A stretch of 64,000 nt of DNA. It comes from a phage. A program made the translations under genes and the position numbers. The notes under the pieces were generated by a model. It did no database searches. It was not told the DNA's origin and saw only the letters and a list, made by a program, of their open reading frames with translations. Positions within the stretch are counted from its first letter, which is position 1; each line of letters opens with the position of its first letter. Of the stretch, positions 43,796 to 47,529 are shown piece after piece. The stretch lies in sequence record PX104380.1; one strand, given 5' to 3'.

Positions 43796-43825
43796 ATTAT
43801 ACCACATCCTTGTGGTAAAGTAAAC
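43796..43825 (-). promoter_or_regulatory. early-type promoter
   Basis: GTTTAC-N18-TATAAT upstream of ORF 43567-43770. Confidence 0.55.
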
Positions 43826-45642
43826 TACTGGCTCATCCATTCTTTACGAAGGTCAGCATTATCTCCCATGAGCATTTCAAAAAGCTCATTCCAGTTCTCA
43901 GGAAGTTTAACAACATCATATACCGGATTTTGAATCATCTCACGATATTCAGATTTTTCCAAAGAGCCAAGTCCCTTAATATAACGGATGCTATGTTTAG
44001 GTAGAGCATCTTTAGCACTCTCATATTCAGCGACTGTATAAAACCATTCTTGTTTTTTACCGACCTGAGCGATGATTACAGGAGTTTTGACAAAGCGAAT
44101 TCTTCCTTGTTCAAACAGTTCTGGCCAATTACTAAAAAATCCGAGCAGAGAAGGATAAATGCTTCCTAGACCATCATGGTCAGCATCGGTCATAATAGCA
44201 ATATTATGATAATTCAAGTTTTCAGCTTTTTCACCAAGAACTAATCCAGTGATTGCGCAAATATCAAACAGTTCTTTGTTTTTAAGCATATCAGCATATG
44301 ACATACCCCAACTGTTGAGAACTTTACCGCGCAATGGATAGCCACCATGAAGTTCTTTATCACGAACATCGATTAAATAACCAATTGCAGAATCACCCTC
44401 AGTCAAGAAAAGAGTAGTGTCAGCATCTTTACCACAAAGATTCGCTTTGATATGTTTATGAACCTTAGCTTTAGAAGCCTTTTTAGCTGCTTTAGTTTCT
44501 GCTGCTTTTTCTGCCGCCAATTTACGAGCCAAGGCAGCTTCAATAATCGGCATTAAAATTGCTTCATTATTTAGAATAGCGCGTGAAATCTTTTTAGCAT
44601 CAAGTTGAATATGACTACGAATTTCGCCAAATGGAGAAGTCAAACGCTCTTTAGTTTGAGAATCAAATCGCATGTTTTTCATATCACGGACAAACATAAC
44701 GATAGTCAAACATTCTTTAACGCGTGCTTTAGTCACATCAATTTTGAACTTACGTTTGATTTGTGGAATAAGGTCTTCACAAATATCATCCATAACACAG
44801 TCAATGTGATGGCCACCATTCTTAGTGTGAATGTTATTCACATAAGTTAATTGACGAAAACCATCCGGTGAACGACCAACCGCAATAGAGCAATTTTCTT
44901 GTTCTTGAACGATAGCATGCTCATCATATTGGCGTGCATATTTCTTAAAATTGCCCTGAACCTTTTTACCATTAAAGGTAAATTGAATATCAGGATAAAC
45001 TACTGCAAGTGTCTGGAGACGATCTAGTGTAATGTCAAGATAAACTTGGGACAGCTCATTAGTTTCAAATGACATAAAATCAGGAATGAAAGTAACACGA
45101 GTTCCTTTCCATTTTCCAGGAATAGTTTCCCATGATTTATTTTCCATGCCATTTGAACAACGAACTACAATATTATTTTGACCATCACCAGTTTCACCGA
45201 CAAACATCACAGAAAAAATGTTTGTCAAACTAGAACCAACACCATTCATACCGCCAGTGACGCGTTCTTTATCATCACCGAAGTTACCACCTGCTTTTGG
45301 AATAGTCCAGGCAGCAACAGGACCAGGAATTTCTTCACCGGTAGGTGTTTTGACCATCGCTTGTGGAATACCGCGACCGTTATCTTCAACTGTTACCTGA
45401 TTATTTTTAATGGTAACATTAATTTTATTCGCGAATTTAAACTTAGTACGAATACCTTCATCTACTGAGTTATCGATAATTTCATCAATAAGCTTAACAA
45501 GACCAGGTACATACTGAACACTTTCCCATTTACCAAACAGAAAGCGCTCATGCATTTCATTAGCAGAAGAGCCAATATACATGCCGCTACGCTTTTTGAT
45601 ATGTTCAATATCGCTCAGAATTTTAATTTCATTCTTAATCAT
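43825..45642 (-). CDS. 39: DNA topoisomerase II large subunit gp39 (GyrB-like), contiguous 605 aa
   Basis: GHKL ATPase N-terminus (IDEIIDNSVDE, GRGIP), TOPRIM region; single uninterrupted ORF. Confidence 0.9.
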   Translation of the reverse strand: MIKNEIKILSDIEHIKKRSGMYIGSSANEMHERFLFGKWESVQYVPGLVKLIDEIIDNSVDEGIRTKFKFANKINVTIKNNQVTVEDNGRGIPQAMVKTPTGEEIPGPVAAWTIPKAGGNFGDDKERVTGGMNGVGSSLTNIFSVMFVGETGDGQNNIVVRCSNGMENKSWETIPGKWKGTRVTFIPDFMSFETNELSQVYLDITLDRLQTLAVVYPDIQFTFNGKKVQGNFKKYARQYDEHAIVQEQENCSIAVGRSPDGFRQLTYVNNIHTKNGGHHIDCVMDDICEDLIPQIKRKFKIDVTKARVKECLTIVMFVRDMKNMRFDSQTKERLTSPFGEIRSHIQLDAKKISRAILNNEAILMPIIEAALARKLAAEKAAETKAAKKASKAKVHKHIKANLCGKDADTTLFLTEGDSAIGYLIDVRDKELHGGYPLRGKVLNSWGMSYADMLKNKELFDICAITGLVLGEKAENLNYHNIAIMTDADHDGLGSIYPSLLGFFSNWPELFEQGRIRFVKTPVIIAQVGKKQEWFYTVAEYESAKDALPKHSIRYIKGLGSLEKSEYREMIQNPVYDVVKLPENWNELFEMLMGDNADLRKEWMSQ

Positions 45643-45696
45643 TACTTATCCTCGTTTGGTTTCGGGAATATTATACTCCAATAATCATAAAGCTAA

Positions 45697-45714
45697 AGGC
45701 CCGAAGGCCTTTTA
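45697..45714. other. UUCG-tetraloop hairpin overlapping stop of lipoprotein ORF
   Basis: aaaggcccgaaggccttt; minus sense GGCC-UUCG-GGCC. Confidence 0.4.
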
Positions 45715-45972
45715 TTTAAAACGAATAGTTGAATCCTTAAAGAACAGCCCAGAACATACTGTTCCTTCTACTTTCTGCCCGGTAGGTCCAATAGCACGAA
45801 ATCCAGTATGCTGGAAATCATTTTCAGAGCAACCGAACCAATTATATCCAGTGATTTCAATATTAGTAAAACCACTTGAAGACAAAACTTTGGTTGCATT
45901 ATCAGCATCAGTACATCCTACTAAAGATACTGCTAATACTAATGCCGCGATAGAACGATTAACATATTTCAT
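45712..45972 (-). CDS. small lipoprotein, 86 aa
   Basis: Signal peptide with lipobox LVGC (MKYVNRSIAALVLAVSLVGCTDA). Confidence 0.5.
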   Translation of the reverse strand: MKYVNRSIAALVLAVSLVGCTDADNATKVLSSSGFTNIEITGYNWFGCSENDFQHTGFRAIGPTGQKVEGTVCSGLFFKDSTIRFK

Positions 45973-45976
45973 AATT

Positions 45977-46354
45977 TCACTTAAATTTAATGGCTTGAAG
46001 GAGACTAATAATTCTTAAACGGCTTCTTTCATCTTTAACTGTAAAGGAAAGAGGGTCACCAGATTTCATAGTGATAGTGCATCCAAAATCAAAATTTTCG
46101 GAAACTTCTTCGAAGAAGTCAAATTCTTCAGCATAAATTAGAACATTACTCTGCATACTGTGAAGAATTTTTCCATCATTTCCAGATGCTGTACTAATCA
46201 TCGTAACATTATGACCTTTCATATCTTCAACGATAAATTCGCTTGTAGATATTACAGCATTAATAGAACCATTCCTATAAATAGCAGACATTAGATATTT
46301 CTTTTCTTCACCTTCGCGAACACGATATTTCTTACCGATTTTAAACATAATCAC
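45977..46354 (-). CDS. hypothetical protein, 125 aa
   Basis: ORF track. Confidence 0.5.
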   Translation of the reverse strand: MIMFKIGKKYRVREGEEKKYLMSAIYRNGSINAVISTSEFIVEDMKGHNVTMISTASGNDGKILHSMQSNVLIYAEEFDFFEEVSENFDFGCTITMKSGDPLSFTVKDERSRLRIISLLQAIKFK

Positions 46355-46527
46355 CCTTTAAGTAAATCGTAAAAACCACCATTCACATGCTTAGGAGCAG
46401 AAGGCCGACGAGTAGACAAACGATGACATTTAGGGCAAACATCATTTTCTCGTTCAGAAATCTTTTTAATTTTTTCATATTCATGCCCGCAGTCTTCAGA
46501 TTGGCATTTATAATCATACATTGGCAT
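46351..46527 (-). CDS. small zinc-ribbon protein, 58 aa
   Basis: MPMYDYKCQSEDCGHEYEKIKKISERENDVCPKCHRLSTRR: CxxC...CPKC; below track cutoff. Confidence 0.4.
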   Translation of the reverse strand: MPMYDYKCQSEDCGHEYEKIKKISERENDVCPKCHRLSTRRPSAPKHVNGGFYDLLKG

Positions 46528-46529
46528 AA

Positions 46530-46934
46530 TTATTCCTTAAAGTGTGCTTTCAACATCTGATACAAGGACCATGCTTGTTCATTATTTTCAATAGTAACTT
46601 TCATTACCGGGAATTCTGAGAAATCTTCTATCTGTTCTTGCTCTTCAGAAGCTTGGTATGGATTTTCAACTTCATCAAAGAACCCAGCTTCGTTAGTAGA
46701 GAGCCAGATAAAGTTTTCGTCAAGGATATCACCGCCGGCACAACGTTTGAGTACACCTGTGGATGTCATAATTTTAGTAGGACGCCCAAGATAATCAGCA
46801 TCTAAAATTTTAAAAGGCTCCATACCTAAACGTCGTGCATAGATTCCGTTATCAGTATGGTCTTTAATAAAATTTTCTTGAGCTTGTTTATTTTTAAATT
46901 GATACCATTTATTAACTTCAAATTTAATAGCCAT
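46530..46934 (-). CDS. hypothetical protein, 134 aa
   Basis: ORF track. Confidence 0.5.
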
Positions 46935-47149
46935 TAATAAATTTCCTTCCAGTAAGTTGTGCCGTCTTCAGTAATTTCACGGAATACACCATAAATCGGT
47001 TGTTTATCACCGACTTTCTCATACACATAAACCGAAGTCAAGTGAGTAAACTTAACGGTATGTTCCTTTTGAACCACTACCAAATCTGGATCGAATAATA
47101 CATCTTCAAATTCGTCATTAGTACAGTTCTGAACAATTTTACGTTTCAT
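46934..47149 (-). CDS. hypothetical protein, 71 aa
   Basis: ORF track. Confidence 0.45.
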
Positions 47150-47162
47150 TACAATTTCCTCA

Positions 47163-47432
47163 TTAATTGAACAGCGGAGCGATACGTTTCAGAAGAGTAG
47201 CAGCACCTTTAGCGAATTTTACATCATGAAAAACAGTTTCTTCTTCTGTAACAACTCGAACTTTAATATTTTCACAATCCCAATTTTTACGAACAATCTT
47301 CAAAAGCTGCAGTAAATCTTTACATTCAGCAATATCGATAACACATCCACGAGAATCTTCCATTATCGCACGATAACCGTAAGCCATACCATAATCGTTG
47401 AAAGATTGCTCGATGATAATTAAGTTTTCCAT
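47163..47432 (-). CDS. hypothetical protein, ~89 aa
   Basis: Second ATG at 47432 has GGAG at correct spacing. Confidence 0.45.
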   Translation of the reverse strand: MENLIIIEQSFNDYGMAYGYRAIMEDSRGCVIDIAECKDLLQLLKIVRKNWDCENIKVRVVTEEETVFHDVKFAKGAATLLKRIAPLFN

Positions 47433-47529
47433 TTTATTCTCCAAGTTGTTTTCTGTATCAGTAGTTGATATTGATATAGTACCATAATCAACTACTGATG
47501 TATATAGTTTTATGAAAAAATTTTAAACT

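Follow-up and report, generated by a model that had tools for sequence, protein, structure and literature searches.

Our analysis identifies a small open reading frame (ORF) in a 64,000-nucleotide stretch of phage DNA (sequence record PX104380.1, hereafter the window) as the ortholog of the T4-type gene 39.2 (nwgI), an early gene for a 58-residue, single-domain FmdB zinc-ribbon protein that acts on GroEL/GroES, a reading to which we assign a probability of about 0.85. Orthology with 39.2, membership in the FmdB family, and conservation of the reading frame and metal ligands were established directly for the window copy. The window is from a Tequatrovirus, and the ORF is not an overlooked gene but an accessory gene that is already known and widely annotated in T4-like phages. 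The initial annotation had called the protein unannotated, which holds for the gene track that accompanied that first reading but not for the databases, as most related GenBank records annotate the gene. The finding of a zinc ribbon was correct but ordinary, since the gene is the already described 39.2 (nwgI) of T4-type phages.

The ORF list of the window contains the ORF on the minus strand, running from an ATG start to a TGA stop and encoding the 58-residue product MPMYDYKCQSEDCGHEYEKIKKISERENDVCPKCHRLSTRRPSAPKHVNGGFYDLLKG; its coordinates and those of its features are collected in Table 1. The cysteine motifs quoted in the initial annotation (CQSEDCGH...CPKCH) are present and supply four ligands, C8, C13, C31, and C34, with the first knuckle of the CX4C and not the CX2C type. 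The 17 residues from 14 to 30 separate the two Cys pairs, and M1, P2, Y4, and Y6 are present together with all four cysteines. Residues 43 to 58 form a C-terminal tail that is a candidate partner-binding segment of the window protein.

Table 1. Features of gene 39.2 and of the co-chaperonin gene in the window
Feature	Position	Strand	Basis
CDS, gene 39.2 (nwgI) ortholog	46351..46527	-	ORF list, identity to RB69/T4, map position, codon-position pattern
First zinc knuckle, C8-QSED-C13 (CX4C)	46489..46506	-	conservation in 147 relatives
Second zinc knuckle, C31-PK-C34 (CX2C), 17 residues past C13	46426..46437	-	conservation in 147 relatives
C-terminal tail, S43-APKHVNGGFYDLLKG-58, conserved S-A-P ... 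G-[FW]-Y	46354..46401	-	column conservation, alignment, lower pLDDT
Shine-Dalgarno AAGGA, 6 nt 5' of the 39.2 ATG	46534..46538	-	sequence reading
Gene 31, co-chaperonin gp31 (GroES analogue), 111 aa	4648..4983	-	PDB 1g31/2cgt 'GP31', E = 5.5e-72, full length

The window protein is identical to RB69 39.2 at 53 of 57 residues (93%) and to the gp39.2 of T4T and resequenced T4 at 81% of 58 residues in an ungapped alignment. A T4 reference corrected by a single base gave 74% identity and was replaced by the resequenced T4 genomes. The T4 and RB69 proteins (gp39.2, NwgI) share with the window protein the length of 58 residues, the map position, the CX4C...CX2C ligands, and the ...SAPKHVNGGFYDLLKG tail. 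The T4 protein differs by a handful of substitutions, including K, A, and K at the positions of E11, G14, and H15 in the window, and T4 lacks the gene of 123/125 codons that stands between 39.2 and 39.1 in the window; nothing suggests a different function from these differences. The gene order in the window is cef (Pfam T4_Cef, E = 5.5e-35), a goF homolog, 39.2, the 123/125-aa ORF, a 39.1 homolog, and the gene for the topoisomerase large subunit. T4 has cef, goF, 39.2, 39.1, and 39, with similar orders in RB69, T4T, and JoYop. The arrangement of cef, goF, 39.2, (39.1), and topoisomerase gene 39 is found in Mosigvirus, Tegunavirus, and Dhakavirus as well, and in Krischvirus the 39.2 homolog adjoins the topoisomerase gene. 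The gene was reportedly first selected from RB69 in the 2012 work of Ang and Georgopoulos, and its T4, RB43, and RB49 homologs are said to behave alike.

Several features of the surrounding region were observed in passing. The two ORFs on either side of 39.2, the 123/125-aa ORF (45977-46354, minus strand) and the goF homolog (46530-46934, minus strand), both match phrog_622, with E-values of 1e-28 and 2e-40, respectively. A pairwise comparison of the two found no significant similarity, and we therefore do not claim a recent duplication. In RB69, the slot between 39.2 and 39.1 holds a gene of 140 codons. The 86-aa ortholog of gp39.1 in the window (45712-45972, minus strand) is 98% identical to T4T gp39.1, and its N-terminus, MKYVNRSIAALVLAVSLVGCTD, resembles, by eye, the signal peptide of a lipoprotein, including a lipobox (LVGC); the T4 reference annotation of gp39.1 lacks this lipoprotein-like N-terminus. 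The large subunit of topoisomerase II is encoded by a single continuous ORF of 605 residues (43825-45642, minus strand). In T4 the corresponding sequence is divided between genes 39 and 60, which are separated by a mobA remnant and a 50-nt translational bypass, and the window phage has neither the gene 60 insertion nor the bypass arrangement.

The length of the ORF is in itself weak evidence for a gene, because shuffling the 5-kb surroundings (36% G+C) yields on average 2.4 ATG-started ORFs of at least 58 codons per 5 kb. This chance frequency means that gene status must rest on homology, as detected with profile hidden Markov models (HMMs), and on conservation. Matches to the 1.5-kb stretch around 39.2 were found in 558 phage records, reaching at most 96% identity. 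A tblastn search with the 58-aa product matched 886 phage records, at least 852 of which cover 80% or more of the protein and 216 of which are at least 99% identical; annotations among these matches include '39.2', 'FmdB-like transcriptional regulator', 'zinc ribbon domain protein', and 'hypothetical protein'. The initial annotation had put forward conservation in related phages as a check on the ORF, and the result is in its favor: the full-length frame is retained over the genera of the Tevenvirinae, down to 36 to 47% identity, and the Cys ligands are kept in 139 to 147 of 147 relatives. Differences from the window gene at codon positions 1, 2, and 3 number 11, 9, and 22 in T4; 9, 5, and 22 in fPS-90; 10, 4, and 23 in Bp7; and 4, 2, and 11 in a Mosigvirus. 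Substitutions thus fall mostly at third positions, and synonymous codon changes outnumber non-synonymous ones. That the ORF might be a chance, untranslated frame in AT-rich sequence would fit its unremarkable length and the failure of one proteome study to see the T4 protein (PMC9697503). Conservation of the frame has already refuted this reading, to which we give practically no weight; the preponderance of third-position substitutions, an HMM match at E ~7e-12, a good Shine-Dalgarno sequence, and the genetics of the T4 gene described in PMC5153855 all speak against it as well.

In two relatives, Shigella phage vB_SsoM_113 (LR746311) and Salmonella phage Manna (PP987310), 39.2 carries a frameshift after residue ~31-32, ahead of the second CxxC (proteins P0005 and P0007), from which translation enters an alternative frame, …VCLLVGLLLLSM. 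The same alternative frame, VCLLVGLLLLSM, also exists in the window as an overlapping ORF of 44 codons (46383-46517). The frameshifted copies are either sequencing errors or inactivated genes.

The initial annotation had also proposed that the ORF overlaps both of its neighbors by a few nucleotides and is translationally coupled to them. We found no overlaps. The stop codon of the goF-like ORF (TAA, 46530-46532) is followed by a 2-nt spacer and the 39.2 start (46525-46527), and the 39.2 stop (TGA, 46351-46353) by a 2-nt spacer and the next ATG (46346-46348), giving TAA-TT-ATG and TGA-TT-ATG, respectively. Neither junction has the stop/start overlap of the ATGA or TGATG type by which translationally coupled genes are recognized. 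The only start of the downstream gene that would overlap 39.2 is a GTG (46352-46354) in the mechanical ORF list, which we rejected: it has no counterpart in relatives (GTAA in JoYop, GTAG in T4), and in annotated relatives the downstream gene begins at the ATG equivalent to 46346-46348. The AAGGA sequence ahead of 39.2 lies within the goF-like gene upstream, in its final codons, and this Shine-Dalgarno stretch is identical in the window, T4, and JoYop (alignment columns 1 to 16); the last codons of 39.2, AAA GGG (46354-46358), in turn make up the Shine-Dalgarno sequence of the next gene. Because the spacers are only 2 nt long and each Shine-Dalgarno sequence lies inside the preceding gene, translational coupling of the goF-like gene, 39.2, and the next gene is possible even with the genes merely adjacent. 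A scan for promoters and terminators returned 8 promoter-like sites against 10.4 expected, that is, at or below chance, and is therefore uninformative as to promoters. A search of both strands of 45500-47500 against Rfam detected no structured RNA, its single match (E = 0.48) falling far under the gathering cut-off.

Profile scores, ligand conservation, and a predicted model bear out the initial suggestion of a four-ligand zinc ribbon of the FmdB type. In the search of zinc-ribbon families that had been recommended along with it, the window protein matches Pfam PF09723 (Zn_ribbon_8) at 45.7 bits (cut-off 34.4; E = 6.7e-12) and NCBIfam TIGR02605, 'FmdB family zinc ribbon protein' (CxxC_CxxC_SSSS), at 44.9 bits (cut-off 31.3; E = 8.7e-12), with both scores exceeding the curated cut-offs, and it also matches phrog_1076. 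A word-indexed protein search retrieved only 7 near-identical clusters, and an exhaustive HMMER search was used for depth. Among 1.84 billion cluster representatives, this search found 155 at E <= 1e-3, which span many phyla; most have lengths of 50 to 130 residues and alignments that begin at residue 1. Column conservation was computed on an alignment of 147 small proteins drawn from these matches, where C8 is present in 144, C13 in 139 (with His in 5 more), C31 in 146, and C34 in all 147; M1 is kept in 139, P2 in 137, Y4 in 142, Y6 in 132, and P32 in 135. The tail motif S43-A44-P45 ... G51-[FW]52-Y53 is likewise common to the family. Like its relatives, the window protein is small, opens at the initiator Met with MPxYxYxC, has its Cys pairs 17 residues apart, and bears a G-x-[FW]-Y-type tail. 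It differs in its first knuckle, which is CX2C in about two-thirds of relatives and CX4C in the T4-type and jumbo-phage copies, and in lacking the long Ser/Gly-rich C-terminal extension of many cellular members.

Ligand variants occur among phage homologs. In a Krischvirus (RB49-like) homolog (L004, 2501-2674), C-EE-H replaces the first Cys pair, and its His may serve as a ligand; homologs in Vequintavirinae (L005, L008, and L010) have C-x-C at the second knuckle in place of CPxC. All of these variants retain the SAP...GG[FY][YC][DE] tail.

The AlphaFold2 model, built on an alignment of 93 sequences, has a mean pLDDT of 82, with values of about 90 and four short strands in residues 1 to 40 and block means of 67 and 61 in the tail (residues 41 to 58). 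Taken with the family profile and the conservation of the ligands, the model suggests that residues 1 to 40 most likely fold as a four-stranded ribbon around a single Zn2+ with C8, C13, C31, and C34 as its ligands. Against predicted viral structures, the top match of the model is UniProt Q01434, the T4 39.2 entry (TM 0.89, rmsd 1.3 Å), followed by many phage proteins of the FmdB family. Against the PDB, Foldseek returned nothing significant (best E = 0.25), and its weak matches (E >= 0.25) are all zinc-ribbon modules, from the MCM N-terminal domain, RpoP/Rpb12, RbpA, S27e, and Sir2. A sequence search of the PDB also gave nothing significant (best bL31, E = 0.78), and we detected no solved structure of an FmdB-family protein in the PDB by either sequence or fold.

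The label 'regulator' of the FmdB family was inherited from the untested annotation of one bacterial gene. It raises the alternative that the zinc ribbon binds DNA or RNA polymerase and controls phage or host genes, which we consider improbable. The family name carried by TIGR02605 and phrog_1076 has been copied into many phage records; the neighbors goF, cef, and motB concern RNA and transcription; and the weak Foldseek matches include the RNA polymerase-binding ribbons RbpA and RpoP/Rpb12, at a nonsignificant E of 0.28 to 1.0. Pfam, however, shows no DNA-binding domain beside the 40-residue ribbon, and Foldseek found no significant structural match between the window model and a DNA- or RNA polymerase-binding protein in the PDB. 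A full-text literature search found no functional study of FmdB zinc ribbons, and the sole experimental phenotypes of the orthologs, as related in PMC5153855 and PMC4396842, concern GroEL/GroES. The initial annotation had likened the protein to FmdB-type regulators; we found no experimental basis for that part of the comparison, the only tested function of the orthologs being modulation of GroEL/GroES.

We thus favor an action on the chaperonin. PMC5153855 and PMC4396842 describe T4 39.2 as a 58-aa peptide and a 'subtle' modulator of GroES/GroEL, both citing Ang & Georgopoulos 2012 (Genetics 190:989, PMID 22234860); the summary in PMC5153855 was written by the senior author of that study. According to the same accounts, genetic and biochemical data suggest that T4 gp39.2 moves GroEL to an open form that binds the host or phage co-chaperonin (PMC5153855; PMC4396842), and specific groEL mutant hosts permit no growth at all of T4 deleted for 39.2 (PMC5153855). 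A time-resolved omics study of T4 assigns the 39.2 transcript to the early class (PMC9697503, Table S2), and the protein is undetected in the time-resolved proteome (Class_P = NA), where the entry listed is the 45-aa Q01434 (PMC9697503). By orthology with T4, we propose a model in which 39.2 of the window would be made early as a small zinc-ribbon protein with less ordered residues 43 to 58 and would act on the host GroEL/GroES. It would shift GroEL to an open conformation able to bind GroES or gp31, and this shift would allow GroEL-dependent phage proteins to be folded on hosts with a suboptimal chaperonin. Zinc binding, direct contact with GroEL, a role for the tail, and the transfer of this function to the window copy are what we infer in this model. 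Gene 31 is present elsewhere in the 64-kb window, not adjacent to 39.2, and it provides functional context only. Its product gp31 resembles GroES and Cpn10 in acting on GroEL, the machine that gp39.2 reportedly modulates. Unlike gp31 and GroES, which are heptameric lids (gp31 replacing GroES), gp39.2 is a small modulator reported to favor the binding of a lid and not to serve as one (PMC5153855), and it has no sequence or fold relationship to either.

A chaperonin link is consistent with the gene order in two jumbo phages, Klebsiella phage fENko-Kae01 (L009, 601-1094) and Yersinia phage fHe-Yen9-04 (L012, 1501-2017), in which a 39.2-like gene immediately precedes the gene for a phage GroES (Cpn10, E = 2e-18), overlapping it by 1 nt in fENko-Kae01 and ending 19 nt upstream in fHe-Yen9-04. 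The jumbo-phage homolog is 50 to 53% identical to the window protein in the N-terminal 35 residues. Its first knuckle is likewise CX4C, but the GGFYD tail is absent. The GroES proteins of the two phages match each other at E ~3e-41, which suggests that the phages are closely related, so the adjacency probably represents one event and counts once. GroES adjacency was found at none of 80 other viral-contig loci and at none of 120 cellular loci (874 kb in total) with an MPIYEYKC-type FmdB gene, the latter collected with a back-translated MPIYEYKC pattern and hence a sample biased toward canonical CX2C members. On these counts, we reject the notion that FmdB genes generally adjoin GroES.

The same surveys bear on whether gp39.2 is instead a small zinc-ribbon adaptor whose main natural target, in the host or the phage, is another protein and not GroEL, with the GroEL phenotypes being indirect or a side activity of overproduction. 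The ribbon and the S-A-P ... G-[FW]-Y tail are common to a very broad cellular family of many phyla, the cellular FmdB genes surveyed are not near groES, and the T4 effect is termed 'subtle' by its author in PMC5153855, all of which would suit such an adaptor. This explanation nevertheless appears unlikely to us, as that same account describes a groEL-allele-specific block in a T4 deletion mutant and not on overexpression alone (PMC5153855), and the jumbo-phage homolog directly adjoins a GroES gene.

The FmdB family (PF09723/TIGR02605) is very large and without an established function, and gp39.2 is apparently its sole member with experimental phenotypes. Since gp39.2 is also a full-length member of the family, the entire family, bacterial and phage, could be imagined to consist of modulators of the GroEL/GroES chaperonin. 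The zinc-ribbon gene immediately before GroES in two jumbo phages speaks for this idea, which we nonetheless regard as a long shot: the adjacency did not recur at the 80 other viral loci, groES is absent beside the 120 cellular members, and the idea has little support. We speculate, by analogy, that the conserved G-G/x-[FW]-Y tail might be a docking segment for GroEL comparable to G-G-I-V-L in the mobile loop of GroES.

Comparison of the window with T4 records also brought to light errors in the T4 reference. In T4 RefSeq (NC_000866/AF158101), the product of 39.2 has 45 aa and that of 39.1 has 65 aa, and the entries for both genes in RefSeq and UniProt are cut short by legacy sequence errors, as seen when T4 NC_000866 (L002, 5398-5839) and T4T HM137666 (L214, 422-861) are compared with 45712-46527 of the window. 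Over 221 nt, 11 T4-named records (HM137666, KJ477684-6, MT984581, OL964735, OL964745, MZ375356, OZ209023, OZ209057, and OZ035787) are 95.5 to 96.4% identical to the reference and 1 to 3 nt shorter, with 96.4% identity and 1 nt missing in nine of them and 95.5% identity and 3 nt missing in the other two. We translated HM137666 and OL964735, which encode products of 58 and 86 aa, like the window. The reference version of this stretch is common only to old records derived from M89919. UniProt Q01434 (5.1 kDa), the entry used in the T4 omics table, carries the reference error. Because the T4 entries for 39.2 and 39.1 are too short, the proteins can escape proteomic searches.

For the window itself little is at stake, and the value of these results is mainly corrective, for gene labels and for the T4 entries. 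The label 'FmdB-like transcriptional regulator' is spreading through phage annotations without experimental support, while the function that has been tested is chaperonin modulation. Beyond these corrections, a phage protein with known phenotypes inside a huge, uncharacterized bacterial family provides a testable lead for the family as a whole.
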